In this document: one piece after another, positions 26,843 through 51,525 of the stretch
How the letters are laid out: the number at the start of each line of letters is the position of its first letter
Numbering within the stretch: position 1 is the first letter of the stretch
Source: Candidatus Omnitrophota bacterium
Lineage (GTDB): Bacteria; Omnitrophota; Gorgyraeia; Zapsychrales; Fredricksoniimonadaceae
Direction: 5' to 3'
NCBI GenBank assembly: GCA_015228785.1
Contig: JADGCU010000006.1
Span: forward strand, 1-51,525
DNA length: 51,525 nucleotides
The notes under the pieces: generated by a model
Seen by the model: the letters and a program-made list of their open reading frames with translations, nothing else
What the model was told of the DNA's origin: nothing
The model's database searches: none
Translations under genes and position numbers: made by a program

Positions 26843-26872
26843 ATTATATTAATAATTTTTGTCTTGAGTAAA
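26843..26872 (-). promoter_or_regulatory. Possible internal promoter upstream of MshEN-pilC
   Basis: TTTACT-18 nt-TATAAT in an AT-rich intergenic gap, with a GGAGG SD downstream. Confidence 0.4.
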
Positions 26873-26883
26873 GAAAACAAAAA

Positions 26884-28593: not shown

Positions 28594-28616
28594 TCACTAA
28601 TTGTTATAAACAACCG

Positions 28617-34959: not shown

Positions 34960-37900
34960 TTACCCAGCCGTGTCGAGCGGCTCTCCTGATATAACCCCTA
35001 AAAACTGCGGAAGATCCTCAAGCGGCTGAATACTAAAAATGACAGGAACAAATCCAGATGCTTGTCTAAACCGCTCTAACTTCACGGGATCGATATTAAA
35101 CTGGATCGCGTTCCCCGTCCCTGTGGTCTTAACATCCATGCGCTGAGCCCTAAGATCAATACCACCTGTCTTATCCCCGGCCTTCATCGCCGACTCAGCA
35201 GCGATCTTGCTAAGCAAGATACGAGCATATTCAATAGCCTTGCCTTGATCAATAAAATTCGGACTCGTCACAATTGAAACAACTTTAGCCTTTCGAGCCA
35301 GAGACGCAAAATGATCGAGTGCCCTCTCGACCGCTTGCGAAGGAAGCCCGTTCAAAACGTCAATATCGATATCAACTATATCAAAACTTTTGCCGGACAC
35401 GTCCTGCGCAGAACCAGGTTCGATCTTGTAACGCAACTCTGTTCCAGGTGCCATGCCGACAGCCTGCATGGTATCCATGTTATAAAGCCAGCGCCAAACC
35501 GCAATAAGCCCCTTCTCTACAAACGGGGTAATAAACCCCTGAATACCCAGAATATTCAACCCGTAAGCATCTGCTTCTGATAACTTGTCCGATCCAGACC
35601 CGAGAAATTGAGGAGTAGAGCGGTAACGCTGCATAATCTCGGCGTCCGCATGCGCATCAATATGGAGCAGGCTATTACCCTTGCGAGAAATCCATCCTTT
35701 CTCAACAGCAAACCACCAGAAAGGAAACGCAAAATTATGATCATCTGCGATAAACACGCGTGGGCCATCAGGAATTTCGATGAGAACTTTCTTCTTTAAA
35801 CCTGTGATTTCTTTAAGGTCCTCACCTTTTAAAGACCGGTAAGAAACAATATTAGACTCGATAACCTGATCTGCCATTTCCGCCGACCATCCCCGCACAA
35901 CAGTCCAATCATCAACACCTGTCACATCGACCGCATCTCCGGCAAGGAGCTTCAGCCCAAAGGGAACGATCTCGGCAACCGCCTTTTCATTACGCTTCGT
36001 CACCTGATTCGACCCTGCTTGACCGTCTCTGTTTCTTGCCAAGAGCCGTTGAACAGCGCTCGCCGTTTCTTTATAGTTGATCACATTGGCCTTTACGAGA
36101 CCAGGAACACCTTTCACCTCCTCATCAGACCCTCCAGGTCCAAAACCATCGCCGAAATAAACAACTTTTGTACCAAACCTTGGAAAAATCTTCTTTCCCA
36201 TAGTCTCGCCTTTATTGATAGCCAAGAACCAGGAGTTGTAATGATAAAGCTCCCCATTTTTATCGCCATCAAACGGCTTAGTATCAATAAAAGGCCCCGA
36301 TGTATCAGGCAAAACAATGCCTCGCCTCTTGGTCTCGTGCCTCAAATACTCAAGGATCTCCGGGATCCTCTGCCCATGTAACAATCTAAACCTAACAGAA
36401 ATCACTCCGTCCGACGTTAATATCTGGGGCTCCATATTTTCCTCGGGAAACTTCTGTGCGATGGATAATAAGACACTCGAAAGCCTCTCCACCGTCGCAT
36501 CACCTGAAAAAGTAACTAAATCTGTCTTCAAATAACCCGTGCTGTCAACGTCATAGGAAGCTCCGCCACCCGCGACATATAGCACAATCTTCTTCCCGCC
36601 TGTCAATCGTGACCTGATCGGCATACCCTTAGCATCTTTGCTGTTTTCCAAATGCTCTCGCAATCTCTCAAAATTCCCATTGGTCAAGATCACGATCTTC
36701 TTTTTGGCATCAAGCGCAGCCAACAATGTTTCCACCATCTCTGAAGACAAGGGTGATTTGTCATCCGCGAGTGTGCCATCATAATCAAAAACCAGCACTT
36801 CCGCATCATCAAGATCTCCCATAGCGATCTTTTTAACAAGTTGTCCGTGATCAAACAGTTGATTCTCAACACTAGCCTTATCTGTCTTCATCGCCAACTC
36901 GCGGTCTGATCCCCACATCGGTGTTACAGCAACGTTCGCTTTCTTCTGAAAAAAGACCTTGCCGCTTTTAAAAGTAAGAATATCAGAAAGAAGAACTCCC
37001 TCTTTGCCAAGAACTTCCGCTATCCCTTGAGGATCATGATCAGGAAACACTCCCTGAAGATACAAAACACCTTCTGGACGCAATCGATCTACCATCGTTC
37101 GAATAAGCTCAGGAGAAAGATCCGGGCCAAAACGCATATAAATAAAATCCAAAGATCCCTCGGGAAGGAACTTTGCTGCATTCAACGCATCAGCACGGTA
37201 GAAATCAATATCAATAGGAAAACGTCCCTGAAGATATTTCATATCTTCAATGCCCTTTTTAAAACGATTGATCCACTTTGCAGCGATATCAACAACATGA
37301 AATCTAATCTCTGGCCCTTTCGCAGATCCTATTCCTCGGCCAAATGCTTTCATCATCACTAAGAATTCTTCCTTCCAAGGATCCCCAGGTGAAAAGAGGC
37401 CAATATCTCTCGGAGAAAAAGATGGCAACGCGCTATGAACAGCCTCGATCATTTCTTTAATATCCGGCTCAGCGGTATCAGGCGTTCCTGCCCACTGATT
37501 GAACTCGCCACTATCTTCACTATCATCAGCGTGCAAAGTATACTTTTCATTCCTCACCACCTCTACCCCTAATGACTTAAGCTCATAATCAAGATAATTG
37601 ATAACCACCTCTCCATTGGCCTTCAATAGAACAAACGACATCCCTTGAGAAGAAAAGACTTTCGTAGGTGCATGAATATAAATATTCTCATCTTTCATCC
37701 CACCCTGTCGTAAATACTCCACCAGATCATTCACATCACCATTCCCAGAACCTGGAACAATCACAATACGATGGTCATCATTCACGTGAGGAAGCATGTC
37801 CTTGGGCTCTCGAGTTGAAGAAAAATGCCCAAATCGAATTCCCACCCCATCTTTATCGTAAACAATAAAAGCTACACCCGTGCTATTTAAAGAAGCTGAA

Positions 37901-39384
37901 TATGTGTCCCCCAACGCATAACCTCCCTGAACAAACCACGCAAGCTTTCCTTCCTCAACCTCTTTCATGGCAGGGAGCCAAGGATGGGGGCTTTCTTGTC
38001 GCACATAAAAACGCTCTGCCTTCTCAGTCCTCCCCGATGAAGGAAGACTCGCCGTCTCCATAACCTCCGACAACTCATAATTTGCTGTCGAGGGCTCTGC
38101 GCTAGAGCGAACAGAAAAAAGAGTCCGCCCTTGAGGCAACATGGCTAGCTCCGATGTCGTTGCGCGCGCCCGGTCAAGCTTCATCCGACATCCCCCTGAG
38201 AAATATTTCCGCGGGATCATCTCCCCCGAAACCGAATCTTGCTCCTCCTTGATCATGTTAAAAGCACCTTTCTTGAAAGCCTCAACATAACGCTTCCAAA
38301 TATCCTCAGGAGAAAGATCGCTCAACGAGCCTTCGGCTCTTCCCAGGCCCACAATCTTCTTTCTGTCGACGTACACCTGAGACAAGGCGCTATCTTTAAT
38401 TTTCCTTTTAAACCAGTCCGCCAGGATCAACGAATGATAGATCTGCCGGAGCGGCGCAAAATTTCGGCCTTCATTGACTTCTCGCTCCAAGATAGGAACC
38501 ACAACTTCACGAAGAACCTGTTTGCCAAGATCTTGAGATGAAGAAGCTCTCGCCGCCTGACACTTGACACTTAAAGAAGGATCAATAACTCCAGAGGAAT
38601 TCAAGCACTCACCGGTCTCAACCCTCGAACGTCCCGCATCTTTCTCCTGGGCCAGATAATCACTCTCCAGCATCACTTTAAGCCGACTTTCAACAACATA
38701 AGCAACCGCCGTTCCATCATGTGCCGCATGTTCTGCGTCCTGTGCTTTTTCATAAACGACCGCCTTCTCCGGAACAATCCACACCTTATTAAACGTATCT
38801 ACCGGAATATCCGTCGTGCCATATTTCTCCCGAGACTTTTGGTACACCTCAGCCCAAAACTTCTTTCCCAGATCATCTTCAGGATAAATAGCTGATGCCG
38901 TAATCTGTTTCAAGAGATAATCCTGCGCTAAAAGTTCCCGCCCCATCTGAGTTTCACCAAACTCACTGGTAATAATCCGATCTTTCTCATACGGAGAAAG
39001 GTTGACCCAAAGATCATCCTCAGGGACAGTCAATGCGGCGAGAAAATATTTTATAAGACGAGTAGATTCCACCTTAAGGTCATCAGACGTAAAACGCAAC
39101 CCGGCTGCCCTCTGACGTCCAACACCTATCTTTTCGAAATCCCCTTTATCTAGAATAAAATCAAACTTAAATGGCTCCTGAGCATTGACCTTAATCCCTG
39201 CCAGAACAGGCGGTTGATAGGCATCTGAGAAGTGAACCATCGTTCCCGGCACAGACAGGCCATTGCCCATCGCTGCTCCCAAATCAGCAGCATGAACTGG
39301 CAGACTTGTAGCTGTAAAAATAACAGCCATAAATCCACACAACGTGCGCCTCAGCGCCAGCCATAAACAACCCATCTTTAACAT
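34960..39384 (-). CDS. Large exported modular protein: conserved-type N-domain, several enzyme-like cargo domains (SAM methyltransferase-like, HAD hydrolase, UPF0489/ureohydrolase-like) and a C-terminal GGID tail
   Basis: Signal peptide ending PVHA-A; GGGGAGG SD; ADA...LPEGSLDFIY...LRPEGVL (MTase-like); FDYDGTL...LTNG...K...YFGD......D (HAD); DDHN...HIDAHAD...DIDIDV; C-terminus DKTGGIDL...GFVPVIFSIQP...LP. Confidence 0.85.
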   Translation of the reverse strand: MLKMGCLWLALRRTLCGFMAVIFTATSLPVHAADLGAAMGNGLSVPGTMVHFSDAYQPPVLAGIKVNAQEPFKFDFILDKGDFEKIGVGRQRAAGLRFTSDDLKVESTRLIKYFLAALTVPEDDLWVNLSPYEKDRIITSEFGETQMGRELLAQDYLLKQITASAIYPEDDLGKKFWAEVYQKSREKYGTTDIPVDTFNKVWIVPEKAVVYEKAQDAEHAAHDGTAVAYVVESRLKVMLESDYLAQEKDAGRSRVETGECLNSSGVIDPSLSVKCQAARASSSQDLGKQVLREVVVPILEREVNEGRNFAPLRQIYHSLILADWFKRKIKDSALSQVYVDRKKIVGLGRAEGSLSDLSPEDIWKRYVEAFKKGAFNMIKEEQDSVSGEMIPRKYFSGGCRMKLDRARATTSELAMLPQGRTLFSVRSSAEPSTANYELSEVMETASLPSSGRTEKAERFYVRQESPHPWLPAMKEVEEGKLAWFVQGGYALGDTYSASLNSTGVAFIVYDKDGVGIRFGHFSSTREPKDMLPHVNDDHRIVIVPGSGNGDVNDLVEYLRQGGMKDENIYIHAPTKVFSSQGMSFVLLKANGEVVINYLDYELKSLGVEVVRNEKYTLHADDSEDSGEFNQWAGTPDTAEPDIKEMIEAVHSALPSFSPRDIGLFSPGDPWKEEFLVMMKAFGRGIGSAKGPEIRFHVVDIAAKWINRFKKGIEDMKYLQGRFPIDIDFYRADALNAAKFLPEGSLDFIYMRFGPDLSPELIRTMVDRLRPEGVLYLQGVFPDHDPQGIAEVLGKEGVLLSDILTFKSGKVFFQKKANVAVTPMWGSDRELAMKTDKASVENQLFDHGQLVKKIAMGDLDDAEVLVFDYDGTLADDKSPLSSEMVETLLAALDAKKKIVILTNGNFERLREHLENSKDAKGMPIRSRLTGGKKIVLYVAGGGASYDVDSTGYLKTDLVTFSGDATVERLSSVLLSIAQKFPEENMEPQILTSDGVISVRFRLLHGQRIPEILEYLRHETKRRGIVLPDTSGPFIDTKPFDGDKNGELYHYNSWFLAINKGETMGKKIFPRFGTKVVYFGDGFGPGGSDEEVKGVPGLVKANVINYKETASAVQRLLARNRDGQAGSNQVTKRNEKAVAEIVPFGLKLLAGDAVDVTGVDDWTVVRGWSAEMADQVIESNIVSYRSLKGEDLKEITGLKKKVLIEIPDGPRVFIADDHNFAFPFWWFAVEKGWISRKGNSLLHIDAHADAEIMQRYRSTPQFLGSGSDKLSEADAYGLNILGIQGFITPFVEKGLIAVWRWLYNMDTMQAVGMAPGTELRYKIEPGSAQDVSGKSFDIVDIDIDVLNGLPSQAVERALDHFASLARKAKVVSIVTSPNFIDQGKAIEYARILLSKIAAESAMKAGDKTGGIDLRAQRMDVKTTGTGNAIQFNIDPVKLERFRQASGFVPVIFSIQPLEDLPQFLGVISGEPLDTAG

Positions 39385-39553
39385 GAAACACGCCTCCCCA
39401 AGCTAATAGAAGTATTTAATATAAATATAAGTGATACAAGGGGATAAGATAAAAAGGAAGGAAAGGCTTTCTTAATAGATAATATTATACATTGAAATAT
39501 TAATATAAAATGTTGGAATATATACAGTTACGAACTTATCGGATGAAGATGCG

Positions 39554-39910
39554 CTAGATATGCTTTTGTATCTTTTCTAAAAGATCCTTATGCTCGAATG
39601 GCTTTACAATATATTCTTTCACACCTTCGAGCTTAAAGATATCCTCAAGCTGTTCCTTATAGGTAAGAACAATAATAGGAACCTGTGCCAGATCCTTGAG
39701 TTTCTTGACCTCGAGAACAAAGGCATAACCATTCACATTCGGCATCACAATATCAAGAAGCACAAGATCAGGTGACATTTTCTGCATCTTTTGAAGAGCT
39801 TCGGCCCCGTCATGAGCGATGACAATTTCATAACCCTGCTTTTGTAAAAAGACCCCCAGCAATCTGACAAAACCTTTATCATCATCAGCAATCAAAATCT
39901 TTTTGGGCAC
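39554..39910 (-). CDS. Single-domain response regulator (CheY-like)
   Basis: ILIADDD, LLDIVMP, LT and IVKPF. GTG start at 39910 with a GAGGA SD. Confidence 0.9.
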   Translation of the reverse strand: MPKKILIADDDKGFVRLLGVFLQKQGYEIVIAHDGAEALQKMQKMSPDLVLLDIVMPNVNGYAFVLEVKKLKDLAQVPIIVLTYKEQLEDIFKLEGVKEYIVKPFEHKDLLEKIQKHI

Positions 39911-39930
39911 AATAAATTCCTCTGAAATAC

Positions 39931-40287
39931 TCAAATATACTTTTGAATCATCTTAAGAAGGTCTTGGTTCACAAAAGGTTTCACTATGTATTCTTTAACC
40001 CCCTCGACCTTGAAAAGATCCCGCATCTCATCCTTACAAGTCAGAACGATCACGGGTGTTTGCGCGCTTTGCTCCAATTTCTTCATATCAAAAAGAAACG
40101 CATACCCATTGATCTTGGGCATCTCCACATCCAAAAGGATCAAATCCGGCAATTCAAACTCAAGTTTCATAAGGGCCTCTTCGCCATCATGAGCAACAAT
40201 AATCTTATAGCCATGCTCTACAAGAAAAGAGCTTAATATTTTTGTCAACGTCTTATCATCATCAGCAATCAAGATTTTCTTGGACAT
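39931..40287 (-). CDS. Single-domain response regulator (CheY-like)
   Basis: ILIADDD, LLDVEMP, LT and IVKPF. Confidence 0.9.
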   Translation of the reverse strand: MSKKILIADDDKTLTKILSSFLVEHGYKIIVAHDGEEALMKLEFELPDLILLDVEMPKINGYAFLFDMKKLEQSAQTPVIVLTCKDEMRDLFKVEGVKEYIVKPFVNQDLLKMIQKYI

Positions 40288-40288
40288 A

Positions 40289-40888
40289 TTAATACCTTTG
40301 CAATGGTTTCATCGTTAACTCTGCGACGATCTTCTTGTCCCCTTTGATAAAAAACTCGATCTCATCCTTGACGTCCTGATCAGAAGAAAAATTGACGCCA
40401 TTAATTGCGGTATTAATAAAACTTTCGAAATGCGACATCTCAAGAAAAATATATCCGTTTGCCGAGAGTTCCTTAACAAAATAGCCGGCAACAAGATTTG
40501 TGATCGTGCCGCACGCATCCATCACAACAAGTTCATCATCTTCATCAATACGACCATATTCCAAAAGCCACATCAGACGCGCAATATAGTCCACGGGAAT
40601 ATAGACAATAAGCGCCCCCAGGGCCTTCCCCTGCTCCATTAACTCCCGATCTAAATGAAATGTCACACTGGAAAAAACGGTTCTGCTGCCAAATTTCTCA
40701 AGCCCATCAACACGCATACGCCGGGCAAACTGAACAATACGCCGCTCCTTGATCGCTGGCTCCGAAGAAAGATAAATATCCCCCTTCACCCTGAGCATCT
40801 TGGAGACAGAAGTCGCCAAGATCATGGACATATCATACAGATTACGATTAGCGCCTGAAAAGGCGAGCACCTTGCTAGAACTGGACAT
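40289..40888 (-). CDS. CheX/CheC-like protein
   Basis: G....YIP...IA.L...L and DACGTITNLVAG resemble the CheX DAxGExxNxxxG motif. Embedded among CheY-like genes. Confidence 0.5.
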   Translation of the reverse strand: MSSSSKVLAFSGANRNLYDMSMILATSVSKMLRVKGDIYLSSEPAIKERRIVQFARRMRVDGLEKFGSRTVFSSVTFHLDRELMEQGKALGALIVYIPVDYIARLMWLLEYGRIDEDDELVVMDACGTITNLVAGYFVKELSANGYIFLEMSHFESFINTAINGVNFSSDQDVKDEIEFFIKGDKKIVAELTMKPLQRY

Positions 40889-41255
40889 AGGGCTTCATCA
40901 CGGCCATGATCTGATCAGGTTTATACGGCTTAATAATATATGCTTTTAAGTTCGGATTCGCCGCATAGGCGGCCTGCTTACTCTCCTCAGCGGCGGAGGC
41001 CGTGATCATGATCATAGGAATATGCGCAGTCTCCGGAACTTTAACCAAGGCTGCCATAAGTTCTACTCCCGACATATTGGGCATCTGATAATCAACAAAC
41101 ATCAGGCTGATCTGCCCCATATGCTCAGCGATAATCCGCATGGCTGCCTCACCATGCTCGGCCTGAAGGATCTCATTCTTAACGCCCAGATTAATCAGCG
41201 TCTTGGACAACAACTTTCTGTCAAGAAGCGAATCATCTACGATCAGAATTTTCAT
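40875..41255 (-). CDS. Single-domain response regulator (CheY-like)
   Basis: MKILIVDDS, FVDYQMPNMSG, ITA and IIKPY. ATG at 41255 with a GAGGAG SD. Confidence 0.9.
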   Translation of the reverse strand: MKILIVDDSLLDRKLLSKTLINLGVKNEILQAEHGEAAMRIIAEHMGQISLMFVDYQMPNMSGVELMAALVKVPETAHIPMIMITASAAEESKQAAYAANPNLKAYIIKPYKPDQIMAVMKPYVQF

Positions 41256-41345
41256 CAATGTTCTCCTCGAGATTAAAACGAGAATGCTCGTAAAACCCTT
41301 ATCCTCAGCTCCAGGAACCAACGTACAGCCCAGCACATGAAAACA

Positions 41346-41570
41346 TTACTTCTCGTTCTTCTCATTCTCCATGGCATCCCCGGCCAGCGCCCCGCCCGCC
41401 GCGCCTACCGCGCCACCGATGAGCGCCCCTTCTGCCCCATGACCACTCTGATACCCAATAATGCCCCCCAACAACGCACCCACTCCGCCACCTGCCGCAG
41501 CCCCTTTTTGCGTCCCTGTACATCCAATAAGAGCAAAAGACATAAGAACAAAAACCACCATCTTCTTCAT
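41346..41570 (-). CDS. Glycine-zipper lipoprotein
   Basis: Lipobox LIGC, GAAAGGGVGALLGGIIG...GALIGGAVGAAGGALAG and an AAGGAG SD. Confidence 0.88.
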   Translation of the reverse strand: MKKMVVFVLMSFALIGCTGTQKGAAAGGGVGALLGGIIGYQSGHGAEGALIGGAVGAAGGALAGDAMENEKNEK

Positions 41571-41657
41571 ACAGTCTCCTTTGTATTATTATGCCCAAAC
41601 CCCATTAGGCCCGAGTTGCTTTTCAATTAAAGAAAGAAAATTATAGGTGTTATGGGT

Positions 41658-41666
41658 ATTATAACA
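41658..41666 (-). promoter_or_regulatory. Possible extended -10 promoter upstream of the glycine-zipper/CheY operon
   Basis: Exact TGtTATAAT on the minus strand in an intergenic gap. Confidence 0.4.
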
Positions 41667-41708
41667 ATGCGAATCGCGGGGAAAAGGGTTTTCTTAAGGT
41701 TTTTGGTT

Positions 41709-43079
41709 CTAATGAGTGGAGCGCACGACGATAAAACGCGTCTCTCCAGCCTCAAGCGTGACCTCGCCGATATCCTCAATACCAAGGCTCATGCCCTGAC
41801 TGTCCAGGTTGTCAAATTGGATACGACATGTTCCTGGATCAACAAAAATCCTGGCCACCCTGATTTGTGCAGGCAGCGCCTGCCAACTTCTAAGATCGGC
41901 CTGTTCTGAAAAGACATTATAAAGATTGCTCATGAGCCCAAAGACTTCAGCAGCAAAAGCCCCGCTCTTTTTATCAATGACCTCTTTCTGTTTACGCTCA
42001 ATCAGATACTTCATGGCTGGCCGCAAAACCGCTTTGGCCAAAACCGTGGCCTTACGCGACTCCAGATCCTTCATCGCAAGTTCCTCAATATTCATCCCCA
42101 ATTCCGTATCCGCAGAAACACGCGCTCCCCCCGCCTTATAAGCAATAACGCGTGCTGAATGAATATCATAATAACGCCGCATATATTTCGGAAAAGCAAG
42201 CTTGATAATAAATTGCCGATCAACCGGAATCGGAACAACATCGGCGACCTTAAGCGGCGAGTACCCGGCGAGCTGAAGAACAATGATCTTAGCCTTGTTT
42301 TCGTATCCTTGACTCGCGAAAGAACCTCGGGTCTCTTGCCGTAGAGCGGCCAAATCGTCATCAGAGAACTCCTCGGCAAGTCTTCCAGCCTCTTCTTTCA
42401 AGATCTGCGGCACATATTGCCCCTCGTAATAGGATGCGTAAAGACTTAACGCCTCCTTGTACCACAACAAGGCCTCTGCCTTATCTTCCGGCCTCCCCAT
42501 CGACTGATACAAGAGCCCCATAAACATCCGGGCAAACCCGTTGTCTTCATAACGCCGGCGTTTCATCTTATGGGCAAGATCCGTCACAACCTGATATTTA
42601 GAATTCAGATCCCGCGCCTCAACGAGTGATTCATTAGGATTCTTCAAAGACAGGAAATTCAATGCCTGGAAGATATTGACCAGGACATACTCATGATCAG
42701 CCCCACGATAAGGAAGCATATAATCATTAACAGCCCAGCTCAAAAACTCTTTACTCAGGGATTCGGTATAGAGCTCCTGAAAACGCTGCTTGGCCTTCTC
42801 AAGACTCCGAACACTTTCTTCGTAACGCCCAGCGTAGAATTCCACAAGCCCCCGGTCCAAATAATACAAAAGATAATTACCAGGACCGTAACTGGCCTCT
42901 TCCCGCTCAATCATATCAGCCGCAAGCTGTAATCGATTAGCCACAACAAGACTATTAACCTCAGGCTGCAAACGGGGACTTCCCGTCGTCATTACAGCAC
43001 ACGAAGAACAGACAAAAAGTACAGGGATAAAAAAAAGAAGGGAACGCCGTTGGGCGTTCCCTAAGATATCTCGCATCAT
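41709..43079 (-). CDS. COG3014-like TPR-containing lipoprotein (usual neighbour of lpoB)
   Basis: Lipobox-like SSC, LLYYLDRGL, PYRG..HE, ALN, VEAR and QADLRSWQALP. Confidence 0.75.
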   Translation of the reverse strand: MMRDILGNAQRRSLLFFIPVLFVCSSCAVMTTGSPRLQPEVNSLVVANRLQLAADMIEREEASYGPGNYLLYYLDRGLVEFYAGRYEESVRSLEKAKQRFQELYTESLSKEFLSWAVNDYMLPYRGADHEYVLVNIFQALNFLSLKNPNESLVEARDLNSKYQVVTDLAHKMKRRRYEDNGFARMFMGLLYQSMGRPEDKAEALLWYKEALSLYASYYEGQYVPQILKEEAGRLAEEFSDDDLAALRQETRGSFASQGYENKAKIIVLQLAGYSPLKVADVVPIPVDRQFIIKLAFPKYMRRYYDIHSARVIAYKAGGARVSADTELGMNIEELAMKDLESRKATVLAKAVLRPAMKYLIERKQKEVIDKKSGAFAAEVFGLMSNLYNVFSEQADLRSWQALPAQIRVARIFVDPGTCRIQFDNLDSQGMSLGIEDIGEVTLEAGETRFIVVRSTH

Positions 43080-43087
43080 GGCGCGTC

Positions 43088-43684: not shown

Positions 43685-43702
43685 AAAATATTCACCCTTT
43701 TA

Positions 43703-44176
43703 TTATTCCGTGACAATAATGCCGCTCTTCAGGTCCGCGTTGATCTCCTCTAAAACCTTCTGAGCGTCCGCCTCATTAGAAAAAGGACCAACCCGTACGC
43801 GATAAAAAACCCCGCGTGCGCCTAAATCGCTGATCATAATATAACAATTATCATGCCCCTTTTCCTTGAGCTTTAAAATAGCAGCGTCCGCCCGAGCCTT
43901 CTCTTTAAAAGAATACACCTGAATAGCTAAAGATTCTTTAGAAACAACCTCCTTGGGAGCCACAACAACAGACTCCTGCGCCCGCATTCTCGGAGCCGGA
44001 ACCACAGCCTCTGCAGTCGTTTGAGGCGACTTAACATTATTCACCACAACATTCTGCTCAACAGGAACACGTGTCTCTTGCGGCTTTTCTTTCTTAAAAG
44101 CCAGCACAACAAAACCAACCGCAAGAATGACCAAAACCCAAATGATCCAAGATTGATTCCCCTTATCAGGCGCCAT
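43703..44176 (-). CDS. SPOR-domain membrane-anchored protein
   Basis: N-terminal TM, IQVYSF...A and FYRVRVGPF...A. GGGAGG SD before the ATG at 44176. Confidence 0.85.
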   Translation of the reverse strand: MAPDKGNQSWIIWVLVILAVGFVVLAFKKEKPQETRVPVEQNVVVNNVKSPQTTAEAVVPAPRMRAQESVVVAPKEVVSKESLAIQVYSFKEKARADAAILKLKEKGHDNCYIMISDLGARGVFYRVRVGPFSNEADAQKVLEEINADLKSGIIVTE

Positions 44177-44345
44177 GAAAATCCTCCCGCTTTTAATTAT
44201 CTTGTTGAACAAGGAACGCCGACAGTTATCCAAACGTTGACGACCTTATTATTTCCTAATGATGAACGGCGGTATTTTATCTCTTTTAATTTTGATTAAC
44301 AACAAAAATCATTTAAGACCCCAAAACAAAGTCTTCTCACCACAC

Positions 44346-45149
44346 CTATCCATGCTCTCCGACGACTTTTGGGGCCTCATATTTAGGAAGACGGCCTTTA
44401 AGGGCTCCCTCCACCAGCGCTTTAATGTCCTCACTGAAATCCTTGCCCAGCATCCACTCCAGATACCCAGGGTCTTTACGTGCGATCTCTCGCAGGCTTT
44501 CCTTCTTTGCATATTTGCCAAACATCATGTAAAGCTCGCCGTTCCACCAACGAAACTTGCGATCCGAATCGTAAAATTCCTGTCGCTCAACATAATTAAA
44601 CCGCCCCAAGACATCAATCGTATCTTCCCCAGCGCCATATTTCTGAATCTGACCCTCCATCACCTCAAGAGTCGCCTCCGTATCTGCCAAAGCCGCATGC
44701 GCCCCCTCAAGCTTCTTTCCACCACAATAAAACGCATAAGCAGCTGTGAGGTCCCTCTTTTCATTCAAATGAAAAACCTTCTGAGCATCATAGATCGAAC
44801 GCGCATTCATCGACAAAGACAACCCCGCATCACGAATTTCGCGTTCCAGAAGCGGGACATCAAATTTATCAACATTAAACCCGCCGATATCAGCATCTCG
44901 CAAAAAATCAACGATCTCCTTGGCAACCTCCTTAAAAGCAGGCGCATCCTTAACCGCTTCGTTAGAGATGCCCGTGAGCTCCACAACCACGGGCGGAATG
45001 GTCATCCCAGGGTTGATCCGCTTGGCATACACTTCGCGACCACCCGTCGGAAGAAGCTTGATCATCGCGATCTCAATGACCTTGTCCTTCTCAATCCACG
45101 TGCCGGTCGTCTCAAGGTCCAGAATGACCAGAGGCTTAGTCAATTTCAT
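44346..45149 (-). CDS. DEDDh 3'-5' exonuclease (DNA polymerase III epsilon-like)
   Basis: LDLETTG, GFN...FD.PLL, AH.ALAD..AT and a C-terminal FGKY...DPGYLEW extension. Confidence 0.9.
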   Translation of the reverse strand: MKLTKPLVILDLETTGTWIEKDKVIEIAMIKLLPTGGREVYAKRINPGMTIPPVVVELTGISNEAVKDAPAFKEVAKEIVDFLRDADIGGFNVDKFDVPLLEREIRDAGLSLSMNARSIYDAQKVFHLNEKRDLTAAYAFYCGGKKLEGAHAALADTEATLEVMEGQIQKYGAGEDTIDVLGRFNYVERQEFYDSDRKFRWWNGELYMMFGKYAKKESLREIARKDPGYLEWMLGKDFSEDIKALVEGALKGRLPKYEAPKVVGEHG

Positions 45150-45162
45150 GAATAACCTTTCT

Positions 45163-45822
45163 TTACTCTATTTCTGCTTCTAATTCCCTAAAGAGTTCCT
45201 CTGCCTTCTTGACCAGATCCGCCTTAATGAGCTTCAGCGACTCAGCATCCTTCTTAAAAGAACGAATGGCATTCAAAAGCTTGCGGACCGCGGCCGTATT
45301 ACGACGTTCGCGCTCCTCATCGGGATCGACCTTCTTGCGCTCCTTCATAAGGACCACAAGATCCTGACGCACAAGCCCCGCAGATCGCCCCTTATCAAAG
45401 ACCTGCCGGCGAAGTTCAGAATAATCTTGACGCGTGATCTCCTTCTTTCCCTTGGCAAGCCGAAGAACATGGATCGCATCCATTTCCGGTAACGCTGATG
45501 CGTCGCGTTCATCCACAAAACTATCTTGCAAATACTGCGGCTCCTGCTGCTCGACAAAACAATAGGTCTTAACAAGCTTGAGGGCCATGGATTTTTTAAA
45601 TCCCAACTCCCGTTCTGCATAATGATCAAACTTCTCATAACCCCAATACTCGTAAAGCTTGTCCCGATGAATAGCAAAAAGAGACTGAGCGAATGAAAGC
45701 CATGCTGTCTTAAAATCCTTCGCCCCCTCCTGAGCACGCTCACGCAATTCTTTACTCGTCGGATTATCAAGCTTCTTAAGCTTGCTGATCTTTTCTTCCT
45801 GATCGATCACGGACATAACCAC
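45163..45822 (-). CDS. Conserved hypothetical protein (DUF3102-like, helical)
   Basis: FK..W......L..I...KLY..WGY..F..Y...ELG.....A.KL pattern and a charged coiled-coil C-terminus. Confidence 0.55.
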   Translation of the reverse strand: MVMSVIDQEEKISKLKKLDNPTSKELRERAQEGAKDFKTAWLSFAQSLFAIHRDKLYEYWGYEKFDHYAERELGFKKSMALKLVKTYCFVEQQEPQYLQDSFVDERDASALPEMDAIHVLRLAKGKKEITRQDYSELRRQVFDKGRSAGLVRQDLVVLMKERKKVDPDEERERRNTAAVRKLLNAIRSFKKDAESLKLIKADLVKKAEELFRELEAEIE

Positions 45823-45906
45823 TCCTTCTAAAATATCTCTACGAAAAATTTAAGACATCCCCGCGCCACGACGGCCCATCAAGACAACGGGTGAACGGAA
45901 TTCTTC

Positions 45907-46809
45907 TTAAAACTGTTTGACCCGAACTCTTCCTGCCATGCGTTGAACGCCCTTCTTGCTAATCGCGCCGGGCTTGATGGAACGGGCCGCCTCAGCGCCA
46001 CATGCGGCAGCCAGACGGATCTGATCCTCAAGCCGGTCTTGTGCCATCATCCCAGCGACACACCCAGCCAATGCCGCATCGCCACAACCAACAGTATGCC
46101 CCTTGACCTTCGGCCCTCGGGCCCATAAGAACTCTTCCCCTTGGGTGATCACAAGGCCCGCTTCTCCCAATGTCAAAAGGACCATCTTCATACCACGCTT
46201 AAGAAAAGACCGCAATCCCTTTTTTACAAGCCGCTGAGAAGAAAGACGGCATTTCAAAAACGCCTCGGCTTCTTCTTGATTAGGCTTGATCAAAAAAGGC
46301 TTCGCCTTTATACCCTCCCCAAGGGCGTCTGCACTCGTATCCAGAAATGTCTGTGCCCCGGCACGCTTGGCTACGCCAATCAAGCTCCGATAAAAAGATG
46401 AAGGAACCCCTACCGGAAGACTCCCGGAGAAAATAACGATACGAGCCCCTAAAATTTGACTGGCGAAGAATTTCTTAAACCGCATCACATCTTCCCGTGC
46501 CCATACCGGACCAGACTCAAAAATACGCGTAACCATGCCGTTCCTATGAATCGTCGTCGTATTAGTCCGCGTCTTGCCTCGAAGAATAAAAAGAACAGGT
46601 GGTAGCCCTTCGTCCCTAAGCTGCCCAGAAAGCCTGCGACCGCTCGTACCCGCAATGGCGATCAAAGGCATACTGACAAGGCCCAGGGCTTTAAGTGCTC
46701 GCGACACATTGACGCCCTTCCCCCCGGGAAAAATCGTCGTTTTCCCAGAACGAACGATCCTATCAAGAGCTGGATTAAGAGTAACGGTAAGAATCCGATT
46801 CGTCTTCAT
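45907..46809 (-). CDS. 1-phosphofructokinase-family hexose kinase (PfkB)
   Basis: TVTLNPALD, GGKGVNVS, TRTN, SGSLP, IKPNQEE, TLG..G and TVGCGDA. Confidence 0.9.
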   Translation of the reverse strand: MKTNRILTVTLNPALDRIVRSGKTTIFPGGKGVNVSRALKALGLVSMPLIAIAGTSGRRLSGQLRDEGLPPVLFILRGKTRTNTTTIHRNGMVTRIFESGPVWAREDVMRFKKFFASQILGARIVIFSGSLPVGVPSSFYRSLIGVAKRAGAQTFLDTSADALGEGIKAKPFLIKPNQEEAEAFLKCRLSSQRLVKKGLRSFLKRGMKMVLLTLGEAGLVITQGEEFLWARGPKVKGHTVGCGDAALAGCVAGMMAQDRLEDQIRLAAACGAEAARSIKPGAISKKGVQRMAGRVRVKQF

Positions 46810-46830
46810 AGTCAACAATAGTCGGCCCAT

Positions 46831-46861
46831 AAAAAAATAGCCACGGGGTCACCGTGGCTAT
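46831..46861 (-). terminator. Rho-independent terminator
   Basis: Perfect 10-bp stem ATAGCCACGG/CCGTGGCTAT with a 5-nt loop, followed by a T-run on the minus strand. Confidence 0.85.
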
Positions 46862-46883
46862 CTTTGGTCATCCTGATTATTTC

Positions 46884-47372
46884 CTACTCAACCGGAATGT
46901 ACGACTTCATCGCACCCCAGGTCTTCTGGCCCACGACGCCATCTGACTTCAGGTTATGCTGTTTCTGAAATTCAATAACCGCGGCACGCGTCTTGCTGCC
47001 GATCTTCCCATCAATCTTTCCGTCATACAAACCAGCACCCTTAAGCGCCTTCTGTAAATCAACAGCCGTAACACCTGTTGCCTTAATGATAGGAGAAGCC
47101 TGTGTATTAACAGCCGAAGAACCTGTCTTAAAAGACCCGGAACCTTCATCCGACTCCTCCATGTCGACAGTCTTGCCACTCTCAATCTTTCCAGCAATCT
47201 CTTTAACCTCATATTTCAGATCAACAACTTCCTTCTCCTGTTGTTCCATACGCTGCTGCAAATCAGCGACATGATTTTGCAACTGATTAACCGGCGAAGG
47301 GGCTTGGGGCGTCGTCGCACATCCAGAAATGGCGAACGATACAAAAGCAATCATTAAAAAACGAGCAATCAC
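46884..47372 (-). CDS. Lipoprotein with coiled coil and peptidoglycan-binding (PG_binding_1) domain
   Basis: Lipobox ISGC, LQ.AL...G.Y.G.IDG.IG..T..AV..FQ....L..DGVVG..TW and an AAAGGAGG SD. Confidence 0.88.
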   Translation of the reverse strand: MIARFLMIAFVSFAISGCATTPQAPSPVNQLQNHVADLQQRMEQQEKEVVDLKYEVKEIAGKIESGKTVDMEESDEGSGSFKTGSSAVNTQASPIIKATGVTAVDLQKALKGAGLYDGKIDGKIGSKTRAAVIEFQKQHNLKSDGVVGQKTWGAMKSYIPVE

Positions 47373-47411
47373 GATGTCCTCCTTTAATTAAGTTTGATCC
47401 TGAATCTTATA

Positions 47412-48095
47412 TTACTGCGCTTCATGAACACTATCAACACTCTTTACTTCTAAAAGTCCCTTAACAACCAACGCAGGATGCGAAGGCAAAAGCGATTCGA
47501 AATCTTTTTTGGCTATCTCAAAATCATCATGAAGAGCCAACTCATATTCGAACCCGGGCTGCACAACCGGAAGCCCTCCAAACTTGACCCTCTCTTTGGT
47601 CCCGTTCACATCAAGCGTACCTAAATAATTCACCCGATCGAAAGCCATCTCAAAATCCAAAGCGACTGATTCCTCAGCAATCGTTGACCCAACGGGAATC
47701 GCAATGGCCGTGATCTCATACGAACCAACCGGGAGTTCCCAGTAAAAATATCCCGGTTCAATCACTCGTCCTTCTGCCCAAGGGACAACGCTCTGATTCG
47801 CCTTATCACCAATAATAAAGAAATACTTCTTCGCTGGATCATTCCGAGAGATAACCGTAAGACGTACATAAGCGGTCTTAAGAAGCCCCGCAAAGACCGT
47901 CTTTCCAAACCCAATCCCAACAGGAACAGAATCAATATCAAGCAACGTTTCGCTTGTCATCGAAACCTGTGCCACCTCAGGAGCACTCGCCGAGGGTGAA
48001 CGCACCTCATTCCCCTCAGGCTTCACACTACTCGAAAGAGCGGTACAGCCTGCCAGACAAATCAATAAAAGAAAGGCTGTCAGATTCCTAAACAT
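47412..48095 (-). CDS. Hypothetical lipoprotein
   Basis: Lipobox LAGC and a beta-rich body (ELPVGSYEI, VNYLGTL). Confidence 0.7.
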   Translation of the reverse strand: MFRNLTAFLLLICLAGCTALSSSVKPEGNEVRSPSASAPEVAQVSMTSETLLDIDSVPVGIGFGKTVFAGLLKTAYVRLTVISRNDPAKKYFFIIGDKANQSVVPWAEGRVIEPGYFYWELPVGSYEITAIAIPVGSTIAEESVALDFEMAFDRVNYLGTLDVNGTKERVKFGGLPVVQPGFEYELALHDDFEIAKKDFESLLPSHPALVVKGLLEVKSVDSVHEAQ

Positions 48096-48212
48096 GCTAA
48101 AAGGATCATTTATGAGATTTTAAAAACAGTGTCAGTTTAGCAAAAAGGATAGAGAACAGGTAGGAATAATTTGGAAAATAAACGGAGCAATAAAAATCCA
48201 GAAAACTATTTA

Positions 48213-51200
48213 TTACGCGCTCCCAGTCCCCATCTTGGCCTCAAGCTCAGAAAACAACGGCAAGGTAGAAGCCGGCTCAATCTTAAAGATCACAGGAACA
48301 AGACCATCGATCTTAATATTATCCAGATCCTGCTGACCAACCGGAAGAACCATGCCCTTCCCATCACGCCTGATCTGCATGTCCAAACTAGCAGCGCTAA
48401 AATCAATACCACCGGTCTTATCCATGGCTTTTTCAGACTCAATTGCCGACACCGTCATGGCCTTTTCAGAAATAAAAGGCGGTCGCACCGGCTTCACATC
48501 ACCAAATCTTTCACGCAAAGCATTAACCGCCCTGTCCTTTTGATAGATTGCGACCCATCGTTCATTTTCTGTAACCGCAGTATCTCTAAATTTCTGAAAG
48601 GTCCAAATAATCCAAGGAGCCGTTTCCTTTGTCGAGACTTCGATCAACAGTTCTCCCGACCACTTACGGGATTCAATATTGGCCCCGTGGTTCAAAAGAT
48701 TCTTACATAACGCAGGAACAGCACGTTCCTTGATAACTTCTTTAATTTCTCGATACGGGGCGCTACTGCCCCCGCTTCCCGCATTCTGGAAGGCCGAAGT
48801 ACTGATCAACTCATTTACCTTTTCCTCATCCGCCGCTACGCCCGTCATCGCCGGCTTTGGTGCCTCCTGAGCCTGCGGCCCCGCTATTGTCGTCACTCGG
48901 CTCGCTTTAATTTCCTCCACGGTCTCCCTAAACTTAGCAAGTTCTTGCCAACGGGTCATGCCCCCCAAACGAAAAGGATCCTTAAAATTCTGAACATACC
49001 AGGCCCATGCCGTCGACGCTGTGCTTTCAACAGGCCTCCCATTCCATCCAAAAGGGATATGAACTGACTTGTTTACATAAAGATATCCCTTCTTGTCGCC
49101 ATCAATACGACTTAAAGATTCCAGGCCCTTCGTCATGGATACCGCATCAGCCAGCGCCTCTTCTGCCCATGAAGGATGTGAATCTTTATAATGAAGTGAA
49201 AGCTCCAAACAAGCTGCGATGGCCCCGGCCGTCCACTCACCGCTAAAAACATCATGACTATCGGTATACCCTACCCCGAACAGTTTCCCATCCTCAGAAT
49301 ATCCAGAACGCGCTTTTGTGGTCTTCCACATACGATAAGAAGCTCCCTCCCCATACATCTCATCTAACTTCTTGGGAGAAAAAGAAACAATGCCCCATGT
49401 CTGGACATCAACCGCAAAATCACGATTTGGCCTGAATTCTTTCCCATCATACAAGCCCCCCTGATAGAGGATGCCCGCCTCTTTATCCAATCCATACTTT
49501 TTAATGTACTCTTCAATGCCATCCATCATTTTCTTATAACTAGAGTCTCCCGTAACTTCATACAACATTCTAAGGCCGGCGTAAGCGGAAAAATTATTCT
49601 CATTAGAAATATCATTTGGATTCTTCTCAAATGTCCCCTCCGGCGCATGATGGATAGCGCCTATATCATCAGTCAAAGCTTTGAACGCAGGAATAAGACT
49701 TTCGGCTAATTGAACCTCTTCACTATTACGAAGGATATTACCCCCATACTTCGCATGTGCGGTCTGAAGCGCTGCCATAATAATCCAGGCATTTTCACCC
49801 ATGATCGGTTTCCAGTCTTTCCATTCACTCTCTTCACCTGTTAAAGGATCAGCATCTTTCCATTTATCAGATACTGTGCGAAAAAATAATGCTTCACGGG
49901 GACCTAATACCTTCTTATCCTTTCCATATCTGAAATACTGCGAACCCGAAGCCCTGATGCTCCGCATCTCCCCCCATGAATCCGAGCGAAGTGTTCTAAT
50001 AAAAGTATTCGCCAAATTAAGATCTTTACGCTGAGGATCAAGAACTGAGGCGATCACACCGGCAGAACCATCATAAAAATTGAGGCTGCGATTAATCATC
50101 CGACGCTCTATCCCGTCTGGAATGGATTTCCACAAATCCAGTCTTTCTTTCAAATCTTTTGGGACCTTAAAACTACGGAGCATATTGTCTTCAAAAACAT
50201 TCCCCTTCAACCACATCATGGGATTCGCAGGTGCTTCGGCCGCTTGTAAAAAAGATGGCAGACTAAGAACCGCTAAAGCAGCGGCAGCCACTATTCCCCA
50301 ATATTTCTTGCGAACCGAGTTCAACGCCGAAGAACCTTCACTCTTCATCGCGGCCTCAGAAGTCTGCTTTAAAATCCAAGCACCTACCTCACGTACAACA
50401 TCATCAGACTCTCTCATGTAAGGCGCCACGGTGGCCATGCTCCCATGGGCACTCGCGTCATTCGTGCCATAACTGAACCGGATCATATTTAAAGGAGTAG
50501 GCGAAGAAGAAGACGGCGCCTGAAGATCCAGACCTTTCTCCTGCGTCGCCTTAGTTTTTAGCCCTTCTGACGGAAGAGGGACACTCCGCTCGATTGAGAA
50601 TGACTTTTGGGGCGGCGCCTCCCGGAATTGACCCTCTTTCGTCACCCGAACCTCGCCTGAAGATGTCCCCGAAAACACTTTGACCCAATCATCATCCTTG
50701 AGATCTGGATTCTCTTTCTTAAAATCATCCAGGACCTTCTTCATCTCCGCCCGTTGATCTTCCGGCGCAGCCGGTATGACAAGATCCCGGATCTGGGCCA
50801 ATGTATTTCCCCCGCCAACTGAAGTATACGTTGCGTTCGCATAGACCTCGCGCCCTTTCCACTCCTGACTCTTATCAGACCGCTCCTCATAAAACGGAAC
50901 CGGCTTAAGCGTATAAACCTTATGTCCCGGGACCATTTCCATGGAAAACTGGTCATCTGCGATCTTCCAGGTCGCCGGCGTTTCTGTCTCTGAAAGGAAC
51001 ACATGCGTTGCTGCAGGATTTTCTTTGACAACCTTCTCAAATTCAGACTTTAAAAGCTCTTTATCAACAGGGATTGATGTCTCATCGATCTGTTTTCGAA
51101 TGTCCGCGACCGTCGCATAACTTTGGCGCATGCTCATCATGGACGTCATCATCGGTGTCCCCTGCGGCACCTCTGAATGGATCGCCGGGGTTTCCGGAGA

Positions 51201-51525
51201 CCCGAACTCCAAGACTTGAGGAATTCTGGGACCGCCTTCCATCCCGGGCTGATTGACATATTCTTCAATAGCCTTCTGATATCGCGCCAACCTGTTGAGC
51301 CGTTGCCAATGCTGCGGATCAATGCGTACGGTCTTTAAAGTAACATCCCTGTCTAAAAGCATCTGGCCAGACGCGTCCAGGTAGTTTTTATTGTAGGGAT
51401 CATTCTTGAGCTTCTCATACTGCCAATAAAAGAACGTCTGCTTGCTTGAGACAAGCGTCTTCTTAAGATTCTCCTGAACATCTTCAGCCTGCCCCGCCTG
51501 TCTGCCGCCCTTCATATAAGTTTTG
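48213..51525 (-). CDS. 5'-truncated large modular protein with an internal signal-peptide-like segment, a six-hairpin glycosidase-like domain, a HEAT-like segment and a C-terminal GGID tail
   Basis: The frame stays open to the window edge. Contains GENAW, SNENN.SAY..L.ML...TGD, AVDVQTW, SGEWT.G and PFGW. C-terminus DKTGGIDF...GLVPVIFKIEP...LPLF matches the tail of 34960..39384. Confidence 0.8.
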   Translation of the reverse strand, partial: KTYMKGGRQAGQAEDVQENLKKTLVSSKQTFFYWQYEKLKNDPYNKNYLDASGQMLLDRDVTLKTVRIDPQHWQRLNRLARYQKAIEEYVNQPGMEGGPRIPQVLEFGSPETPAIHSEVPQGTPMMTSMMSMRQSYATVADIRKQIDETSIPVDKELLKSEFEKVVKENPAATHVFLSETETPATWKIADDQFSMEMVPGHKVYTLKPVPFYEERSDKSQEWKGREVYANATYTSVGGGNTLAQIRDLVIPAAPEDQRAEMKKVLDDFKKENPDLKDDDWVKVFSGTSSGEVRVTKEGQFREAPPQKSFSIERSVPLPSEGLKTKATQEKGLDLQAPSSSSPTPLNMIRFSYGTNDASAHGSMATVAPYMRESDDVVREVGAWILKQTSEAAMKSEGSSALNSVRKKYWGIVAAAALAVLSLPSFLQAAEAPANPMMWLKGNVFEDNMLRSFKVPKDLKERLDLWKSIPDGIERRMINRSLNFYDGSAGVIASVLDPQRKDLNLANTFIRTLRSDSWGEMRSIRASGSQYFRYGKDKKVLGPREALFFRTVSDKWKDADPLTGEESEWKDWKPIMGENAWIIMAALQTAHAKYGGNILRNSEEVQLAESLIPAFKALTDDIGAIHHAPEGTFEKNPNDISNENNFSAYAGLRMLYEVTGDSSYKKMMDGIEEYIKKYGLDKEAGILYQGGLYDGKEFRPNRDFAVDVQTWGIVSFSPKKLDEMYGEGASYRMWKTTKARSGYSEDGKLFGVGYTDSHDVFSGEWTAGAIAACLELSLHYKDSHPSWAEEALADAVSMTKGLESLSRIDGDKKGYLYVNKSVHIPFGWNGRPVESTASTAWAWYVQNFKDPFRLGGMTRWQELAKFRETVEEIKASRVTTIAGPQAQEAPKPAMTGVAADEEKVNELISTSAFQNAGSGGSSAPYREIKEVIKERAVPALCKNLLNHGANIESRKWSGELLIEVSTKETAPWIIWTFQKFRDTAVTENERWVAIYQKDRAVNALRERFGDVKPVRPPFISEKAMTVSAIESEKAMDKTGGIDFSAASLDMQIRRDGKGMVLPVGQQDLDNIKIDGLVPVIFKIEPASTLPLFSELEAKMGTGSA
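48423..48470 (-). repeat. 15-nt direct repeat (14/15 identical, 33-nt period) encoding SEKAM twice
   Basis: Plus strand catggctttttcaga at 48423-48437 and catggccttttcaga at 48456-48470. Confidence 0.75.

Follow-up and report, generated by a model that had tools for sequence, protein, structure and literature searches.

The described systems closest to the protein family reported here are the cargo proteins of the type IX secretion system (T9SS) of Bacteroidota, the polymorphic toxins (Rhs, CdiA, MafB), the MARTX toxins, domain-insertion proteins and the giant proteins of the Omnitrophota. In MARTX toxins, conserved N-terminal and C-terminal repeat regions flank exchangeable effector domains, which are freed by autoprocessing. 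The Omnitrophota are widespread, ultra-small and uncultured bacteria that are thought to live off other cells. Their giants, the Archaeovorins and multi-enzyme giants, have at least 10,000 amino acids (aa) and many transmembrane-helix anchors according to the accessible parts of two reports (10.1101/2023.11.21.568195; 10.64898/2026.06.07.730766). The present family was found in a 51,525-nucleotide (nt) stretch of DNA, here called the window, which is contig JADGCU010000006.1 (contig C96 in our numbering) of Candidatus Omnitrophota bacterium, assembly GCA_015228785.1. This source genome (G000) is metagenome-assembled, is represented by 2.02 Mb on 123 contigs and is 82% complete. Our data indicate, with good confidence, that the conserved N-terminal domain and C-terminal tail of these proteins are the halves of a single fold, here called the carrier, of about 400 aa, with a single permissive insertion site, FSGG^GGIDL, at which cargo of variable length and kind is placed.

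Two large open reading frames (ORFs) on the minus strand of the window were the starting point. P0001 (34960-39384, minus strand) is a complete protein of 1474 aa that holds a signal peptide, an N-terminal carrier N-half, two cargo modules and a C-terminal GGID tail in one ORF. The Sec-type signal peptide, recognized by eye, covers aa 1-33 (39286-39384) and ends in SLPVHA, followed by AD. The N-half (38146-39294) contains the motifs WVNLSPYEKDRII, FNKVWI, EREVNEGRNFAPLRQ and PRKYFSGG, and terminates in MIPRKYFSGG. Directly past it lies a junction motif, ELAM (aa 412-415; 38140-38151), and then the cargo (aa 416-1396; 35197-38139), which has no relation to the cargo of other members and is separated into its two modules by an internal ELAM (aa 829-832; 36889-36900). 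The cargo includes a weak HAD-like stretch under the curated cut-offs (aa 863-923; 36616-36798) and a UPF0489/peptide-arginase-like domain (aa 1210-1306; 35467-35757; PF12640, 35.9 bits against a cut-off of 27). A third junction motif, ESAM (aa 1397-1400; 35185-35196), lies 8 aa ahead of GGID, and the carrier C-half, or tail (aa 1401-1474; 34963-35184), reads DKTGGIDL...GFVPVIFSIQPL...FLG.

P0002 (48213-51524, minus strand) shows 1103 aa of cargo and tail, and its 5′ end lies past the window, which places its N-terminus and any N-half outside the view. The tail (48216-48455) contains an EKAM junction motif at 48423-48434, with a second EKAM at 48456-48467. A further junction motif, EAAM (aa 390-393; 50346-50357), is followed directly, in the middle of the ORF, by a signal-peptide-like hydrophobic segment (50205-50297) that ends in RKKYWGIVAAAALAVLSLPSFLQA and continues with AE. 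By BLASTP, the two proteins are significantly similar in the tail alone (aa 1389-1461 versus 1023-1091, with 37% identity and E 2e-8), and every segment outside it has E of at least 0.25. At the DNA level, the DKTGGID codons are 20/21 identical (GATAAGACAGGTGGTATTGAT at 35175-35155 and GATAAGACCGGTGGTATTGAT at 48422-48402). An earlier note on this DNA had described two large ORFs with unrelated middles and like tails, the near-identity of the DKTGGID codons, and a complete member with a signal peptide and an N-domain ending in IPRKYFSGG, and our data confirm each of these observations.

The resemblance goes well beyond chance, and the two ORFs proved to be part of a large paralogous family. 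A hidden Markov model (HMM) of the tail, iterated from the P0001 tail with a cut-off of E ≤ 1e-3, recovered 22 ORFs of the source genome, in each of which 0-65 aa separate the tail from the end of the ORF; a relaxed search and inspection by eye added two weaker tails (contigs C88 and C120). A profile of the N-domain (as the N-half is also called here) matched 22 ORFs as well, N-terminally every time. Together, the ORFs that bear the N-half, the tail or both number 29 and comprise 47,899 aa, or 7.1% of the genome bases. Both halves occur in 17 of these 29, the N-domain alone in 5 and the tail alone in 7. All 12 one-ended ORFs are interrupted, and the apparent exceptions to the pairing of the halves were traced to contig ends and other truncation, masked runs (C73), a frameshift (C30) or one in-frame stop (C98); in the one-ended ORF of C74, the stop lies 30 nt short of the contig end.

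Signal peptides were seen by eye in 19 of the 22 N-termini, with a basic stretch, a hydrophobic core, A-x-A then Q or A, and then LPxPGTMV, while the remaining three N-termini are masked or truncated. The N-domain, of about 320 aa, is 43-62% identical to that of P0001 and has 38 invariant columns, among them the motifs WVNLSPYEKDRII, DYxLKQ, FNKVWI, EKEVNEGxNFAxLRQ and PRKYFSGG. The tails are 17-48% identical, and their invariant residues are the GG and one later G. The middles gave a BLAST match at E < 1e-5 in only 4 of 406 pairs. The earlier note had expected HMM searches to reveal many paralogs, with the tail always terminal, the N-domain in the same ORF and interchangeable middles, and this is what was found; the contrary case it had named, a tail confined to the two proteins of the window, did not hold.

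The family extends across relatives of the source genome. A degenerate-pattern scan, run on one genome per species, gave 596 stretches; 590 of them were confirmed, and 80 loci were kept. The titles of 63 of these name Candidatus Omnitrophota or Omnitrophica, and the other 17 come from third-party metagenome-assembled genomes titled 'uncultured Planctomycetales'. In 45 ORFs of these named loci, both modules are in the expected places. The N-domain was detected in 37 of 41 close genomes, including all 24 members of the same family other than the source genome, with up to at least 53 scored copies in each. Overall, copy numbers in related genomes run from 2 to more than 60. In one near-complete relative (G011), the tail is listed in the same open frame for 38 of 39 N-domain ORFs, and the tail of the 39th is divergent (independent E-value 1.6e-4); two further genomes pair N-half and tail in 2 of 2 ORFs (G035) and 5 of 7 ORFs (G036). 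By summed open frames and rounded genome sizes, the family takes up about 6.5% of the near-complete genome G011 and about 13% of another near-complete relative, G003. In a phylum-wide sample of 301 genomes, the N-domain was present in 85 and the tail in 38, all 38 of which lie within the 85, and every positive belongs to the same class or is closer still (the class make-up of the negatives was not broken down).

When 1.84 billion cluster representatives were searched with the tail profile, 6,496 proteins matched at E ≤ 1e-3, and 3,418 did so at E ≤ 1e-10. Among the 149 best of the 6,496, the median distance between tail end and C-terminus is 7 aa, and in 148 this distance does not exceed 40 aa. 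Those of the 149 with at least 700 aa number 51, and 40 of them carry an N-terminal N-domain; the rest look N-terminally truncated. As the earlier note had stated, the family recurs in Omnitrophota, and it was found in this phylum alone. These data describe a lineage-restricted, massively expanded Omnitrophota family that is built on one carrier domain and is apparently undescribed.

In terms of cargo, 17 members were scanned against Pfam, and 6 gave matches above curated cut-offs while 11 did not. The matches are to UPF0489 (P0001), an S-adenosylmethionine (SAM) methyltransferase, a 4Fe-4S/radical-SAM-like stretch, GH77 with GDE_C, a starch-synthase GT5 and a B12-binding radical SAM protein. 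Elsewhere, the names given by the sources are ankyrin, NUDIX, HAD, CheY-like, epimerase and methyltransferase. Taken as a whole, the cargo also comprises alpha-glucan enzymes, receiver domains and many modules that belong to no known family. The variable middles thus include metabolic-type enzymes, as the earlier note had proposed, and the length of the cargo varies between 0 and more than 6,000 aa. Comparison of 114 full members gave 93 pairs with 80-98% identity in the N-domain, and related cargo was found in only 1 of these 93. P0066 and P0137, for example, share 88% identity in the N-domain and 86% in the tail, with no high-scoring segment pair (HSP) in the cargo, and the same holds for L066 and P0118 (86% and 89%, no cargo HSP). 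Cargo modules are therefore exchanged on an almost unchanged carrier. The identities of N-domain and tail co-vary across the set (r 0.66 over 5,674 pairs).

The relationship between the two conserved modules was clearest in members without cargo. P0175 (438 aa, on 5 contigs) passes from KYFSGG through a 15-aa Ala/Asp/Pro linker into GGIDLTR...PVIIDIHP..., and a protein of a distant family at locus L142 (426 aa; HYFSGGVDLRDIRL) has a contiguous YFSGGVDL, in which the same GG closes the N-half and opens the tail. Because the halves are contiguous in cargo-less members, the cargo is to be understood as an insertion inside the carrier domain. A motif of the GGIDL type, (G/A)GI/VDL/F, is kept in all six distant homologues, where it lies 12-14 aa before the protein end in three, about 100-115 aa before the end in two, and contiguous with FSGG in the sixth, which is cargo-less. 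With the tail reduced to the GGIDL strand in distant homologues, the strand would be the core and the further 45 or so aa an order-specific elaboration. Short open frames in relatives (402-593 aa) were also considered as cargo-less forms and were rejected, as most run off contig ends and none has a direct junction of N-half and tail.

The earlier note had also proposed that a complex of N-domain and tail be predicted. The predicted complex reached an ipSAE of 0.78 (0.73, 0.78 and 0.86 in individual runs), compared to 0.00 for the best of three controls. Of 80 solved complexes, 58 attain this mark, as do 2 of 110 mismatched pairs, a calibration that is only rough because our own alignments were used in the complex prediction. 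At least 71% of the contacts agree between runs, and the predicted local distance difference test (pLDDT) value of the partner is at least 59. Tail residues 13-63, nearly the whole tail, contact the N-domain, and the contacts with the lowest error join G16-I17-D18-L19 of the tail to N-half residues 95-97, 121-128, 172-175 and 282-289. These regions of the N-half hold most of the invariant columns. The model supports a binding of the tail to the invariant N-domain motifs, but it does not show it. The view of the earlier note that the N- and C-terminal modules act as separate signals is not favored by this predicted packing, by the contiguity of the halves in cargo-less members, or by the shrinking of the tail to a GGIDL strand in distant relatives.

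In the mechanism that we propose, the carrier would sit behind a Sec-type signal peptide, and variable cargo would split it between PRKYFSGG and GGIDL. The tail would fold back, and its GGID strand and, in this order, about 45 further aa would fill a groove of the WVNLSP, DYxLKQ, FNKVWI and LRQ motifs. Upon closure of the tail on the N-half after Sec export, each protein would become a cargo loop that is held by a conserved knob. The knob, identical across dozens of paralogs, would be what the cell or a partner handles, whether the protein is to cross the outer membrane, to be anchored in the envelope or coat, or to be delivered. We give about even chances to the view that the carrier is a shared export or localization scaffold that confers on dozens of enzymes a common fate outside the cytoplasm, and the combined statement, a split carrier with such a common-fate function, is in our judgment rather probable.

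Several points weigh against this reading. Export rests on signal peptides that were judged by eye, and much of the cargo is of a cytoplasmic type (radical SAM with B12, SAM methyltransferases, starch-synthase-like GT5), which speaks against export because the cofactors needed are unexpected outside the cell. The AlphaFold2 (AF2) models are only moderate, with pLDDT values of 67.5 for the N-half and 62.5 for P0175. The predicted complex does not separate docking in cis from docking in trans, and the predictor may already know the contact from single chains, as the cargo-less P0175 is present in the ESM Atlas. Only two cargo-less members were found, one among the 120 short homologues listed and one among the 6 distant homologues. 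An additional role in sorting is conceivable for the 45 or so order-specific aa past GGIDL. Finally, there is no conserved neighboring machinery in the 80 related loci, which makes the common-fate step purely an inference.

As for the junction motif, E.AM occurs 105 times in the family, whereas 200 shuffles gave 7.1 occurrences on average and 14 at most, and its density in the family is 2.19 per 1,000 aa (kaa) as opposed to 0.098 per kaa in other ORFs of at least 200 aa. It is found directly past FSGG, 5-12 aa ahead of GGID, and between cargo modules, which in P0001 corresponds to aa 412, 1397 and 829. Other genomes mostly have D as the acidic residue, and [DE]xAM occurs there at 1.75-2.3 per kaa compared to 0.21 in flanking ORFs outside the family. 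An origin as internal translation starts or Shine-Dalgarno (SD) relics was rejected on the basis of codon use, of the base at position -1 and of the counts of SD-like tetramers. The E codons are GAA in 54 cases and GAG in 49, and G is not over-represented just ahead of GAR; at position -1, 94 of 103 motif sites have G or C, while likely true starts have T at 43%; and SD-like tetramers precede 19 of 104 motif sites and 116 of 1,016 other internal Met codons, as opposed to 356 of 992 likely starts. Since both E codons are used and the context is unlike that of real starts, the motif acts at the protein level. In four members of the source genome (P0002 and those on C10, C88 and C7), a signal-peptide-like or transmembrane-like helix lies directly past the motif, which hints that the M of the motif was formerly the first residue of a captured gene. 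The lineage-specific preference for E or D favors recognition by some partner. The motif may be recognized at the protein level, possibly for processing; besides a site of processing, candidate roles are a scar of gene capture that selection has retained and a linker of structural use. The tails of many members (e.g. L038, L040 and L047) also contain a D-P-A-M element about 25 aa past GGID, in the context ...IDPAMLxxLQ....

One reading that is compatible with the split carrier is that these proteins are delivered effector polyproteins, in which the carrier would translocate interchangeable enzymes into prey or host cells and the modules would be freed at [DE]xAM, following a MARTX-like logic. 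Cargo such as methyltransferase, radical SAM and glycogen enzymes, together with NUDIX, ankyrin and CheY-like modules, would be fit for use in a foreign cytoplasm, and the junction motif, being a protein-level feature with E here but D in others, looks as if it had co-evolved with a reader. The accessible parts of two reports describe Omnitrophota as host-dependent or predatory (PMC10066038; 10.1101/2023.11.21.568195). Against this, the neighbors in the window and in the 80 related loci link the family to no protease, pore or injection component, and no fold match to a translocation domain was obtained (the best Z scores, 4.0 and 3.3, are at noise level). We consider this reading unlikely. Its fullest form carries a similarly low probability: the split carrier would be a delivery vehicle of host-dependent Omnitrophota, with Sec export, transfer of cytoplasm-type enzymes into or onto partner cells, release at [DE]xAM, and new loads gained when entire genes are taken up, like cassettes, into the one insertion site. 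If true, it would represent a new effector-delivery principle that uses up to about 13% of a genome.

Head-to-tail assembly is also compatible with the split carrier. Here the tail would complete the N-half of another molecule, in the manner of donor-strand exchange, and heteropolymers of enzymes or a surface coat would result. Because the interface residues are invariant, any tail should fit any N-half; moreover, the complex prediction was run in trans and passed, and dozens of compatible subunits are present per cell. However, the linker of 0-15 aa in cargo-less members makes folding in cis the simplest arrangement, the co-variation of N-half and tail identities fits a cis pair (though linkage alone would suffice to produce it), and there is no experimental hint of polymers. 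Such assembly therefore appears improbable, somewhat more so than delivery.

In contrast to the split carrier, the two modules could be independent signals, with the tail a C-terminal sorting signal that is recognized and removed by a translocon or a sortase-like enzyme, as the T9SS C-terminal domain (CTD) is, and the N-domain a separate unit. The strictly C-terminal position of the tail, the [DE]xAM motif ahead of GGID as a possible cleavage site, and the order-specific residues past GGIDL, which are otherwise unexplained, would fit this. Searches for a known signal gave no support. Neither Pfam nor NCBIfam matched the N-domain or tail of P0001 or the tail of P0002 (for the tail, at E ≤ 0.1), and matches were found in the cargo only; in single scans of 19 N-domains, no family recurs in more than one member. 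TIGR04183 (T9SS CTD/Por_Secre_tail) has no match across the source genome, 82% complete as it is, and the T9SS-CTD-like tail suggested by the earlier note was thus not borne out. PF14349 (the T9SS translocon SprA) has none either, a search that is uninformative because 14 control genomes also gave no match. As for sortase-type signals (LPXTG, PEP-CTERM, GlyGly-CTERM), no tail holds a 17-aa segment with a mean hydropathy of at least 2.0, and the tails end in polar residues with no C-terminal hydrophobic helix. Further evidence against independent signals is the extensive predicted interface between the tail and invariant residues of the N-half, the contiguity of the halves in cargo-less forms, the retention of only GGIDLxxxxIxx in distant lineages, and the presence of the N-half in every tail-bearing genome of the 301 sampled. 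This explanation is accordingly quite doubtful. Least probable of all is that the proteins are membrane-anchored periplasmic enzymes with an uncleaved N-terminal anchor and the carrier as a mere conserved stalk: the N-termini of distant homologues do resemble signal anchors more than cleavable peptides, and four members of the source genome have a further hydrophobic helix right past the junction, but 19 of 22 N-termini end in A-x-A then Q or A, as expected for signal peptidase I, and a plain stalk needs neither 45-60% paralog identity with about 40 invariant columns nor a docking tail.

Other secretion classes were no closer to the split carrier. No RTX-type Pfam match, as expected for substrates of type I secretion including LapA-like adhesins, was found in the 17 members scanned, and such substrates lack an N-terminal Sec signal, whereas the family has one by eye in most N-termini. 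The same 17 members gave no autotransporter (type V) Pfam match, and the conserved C-terminal element of about 60 aa (15-20 aa in distant lineages) compares with 250-300 aa for an autotransporter beta-barrel. In terms of fold, profiles of PDB sequences gave no match at E ≤ 10 for N-half or tail, Foldseek of the AF2 models against solved folds gave none at E ≤ 1e-3, and VIA-align of these models gave best Z scores of 4.0 and 3.3; the absence of a match does not prove a new fold. Structural matches to V-ATPase stalks, ESCRT-III, MakA and latherin/BPI-like proteins were rejected as noise (Z ≤ 4.0, Foldseek probability ≤ 0.15). The ESM Atlas returned only Omnitrophota clusters without Pfam. Precomputed Pfam results for 120 homologues list cargo families only, and the source names are 'hypothetical protein' or names of the cargo. 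The refuting case named by the earlier note, a match of the tail to a characterized domain, thus did not arise in Pfam, NCBIfam, PDB, Foldseek, VIA-align or the ESM Atlas. No description of an N-domain/tail family was found in the literature text searched, though supplementary cluster tables might still list an unnamed cluster, and the pair is not mentioned in the accessible parts of 10.1101/2023.11.21.568195, PMC10066038, 10.64898/2026.05.20.726742 and 10.64898/2026.06.07.730766.

The neighborhood of the two genes is of a housekeeping kind. Between P0001 and P0002 lie genes for response regulators, LpoB, SPOR, an exonuclease and PfkB; just upstream of P0001 (39554-41336, minus strand), three response-regulator genes with a receiver domain only form a row with an unannotated 199-aa ORF. 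Downstream of P0001 are DsbA-like, MauE/DoxX, Memo-AMMECR1 and RodA genes, followed by a PilB locus. The genes for the DsbA-like thioredoxin and the MauE/DoxX membrane protein (33796-34870, minus strand), directly downstream, could encode a periplasmic disulfide-forming pair, and no link of these genes to the family was seen in the other loci (80 related loci). The Memo-like and AMMECR1 domains are fused in one protein of 499 aa (32300-33799, minus strand). The PilB locus is an ordinary type IV pilus/type II secretion system-like cluster (25150-30799, minus strand) with two full PilB-type ATPases (26884-28593 and 28617-30350) and PilC (25150-26355), in which stand-alone MshEN-domain ORFs of about 150 aa (26355-26813 and 30350-30799) lie one ahead of each ATPase. 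The earlier note had nominated this double-PilB machine as the export route. Linkage does not support the suggestion: the locus lies at least 4.6 kb from P0001, behind housekeeping genes, and no neighbor recurs in the 80 related loci, where the largest cluster of flanking ORFs covers 3 loci.

Some irregularities were noted in the family genes themselves. On contig C98, a single in-frame stop (2170-2172) lies between a family ORF of 3,043 aa and another open frame, 723 aa long, that continues past the contig end; sequencing error, pseudogene formation or read-through could account for it. Tail matches in relatives likewise hold single in-frame TAG or TGA stops. Runs of masked bases (N or X) occur within three family genes (contigs C97, C6 and C73), at or near the N-domains. 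For P0001, no RNA or DNA runs are listed, which speaks neither for nor against its expression. Contig C73 also carries a 10,599-aa ORF (27206-59002, minus strand) with an open 5′ end. Carrier and tail are absent from it, and E.AM occurs in it just 3 times, which marks it as a giant gene of another kind.

The family takes up 7.1% of the bases of the source genome, comprises thousands of sequence clusters and is without a name in the libraries searched. Once the two conserved ends are seen as a split domain with one site of insertion, hundreds of 'hypothetical giant proteins' become a single system that is open to testing. The family may explain part of the origin of the large multi-enzyme proteins of the phylum, and, if export is as the signal peptides suggest, it offers a catalogue of enzymes that are deployed outside the cytoplasm.

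Compared to T9SS cargo, the family is similar in its signal peptide, its tens of paralogs per genome, its variable enzymatic middle and its conserved extreme C-terminus. Its mature N-termini, as predicted by eye, often begin with Q, a start that is typical of Bacteroidota. It differs in that the tail matches no CTD model, is paired with an N-domain of about 320 aa and is predicted to be part of its fold, and in that it belongs to another phylum. With polymorphic toxins it shares a conserved trafficking part joined to variable, recombining payloads, to the extent that near-identical frames carry unrelated payloads. In those toxins, however, the variable part is the C-terminal tip, whereas in the family it is an internal insertion bracketed by the halves of one domain; in addition, the cargo consists of metabolic-type enzymes, and no immunity-like neighbors were seen in the window or the 80 loci.

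The resemblance to MARTX toxins lies in the conserved ends, the exchangeable central array of enzymes and the short recurrent motif between modules as a possible processing site. In contrast to MARTX, the family has no RTX repeats, no cysteine protease domain was found, and a Sec signal peptide takes the place of a type I signal; its ends form a globular split domain instead of repeats, with no relation in sequence or fold. The Omnitrophota giants, as far as the accessible parts of their descriptions go, come from the same phylum, commonly have signal peptides and share modules with the family (PF08241 methyltransferase, HAD, PF08323 starch synthase, PF04055 radical SAM, receiver and NUDIX), but the family is mostly 0.4-6.7 kaa in size and is defined by the split carrier. 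Finally, as in domain-insertion proteins, the host fold is broken at one loop and resumed past the insert, while the family differs from them in using this single site for hundreds of unrelated, often multi-domain inserts, in dozens of paralogs per genome.

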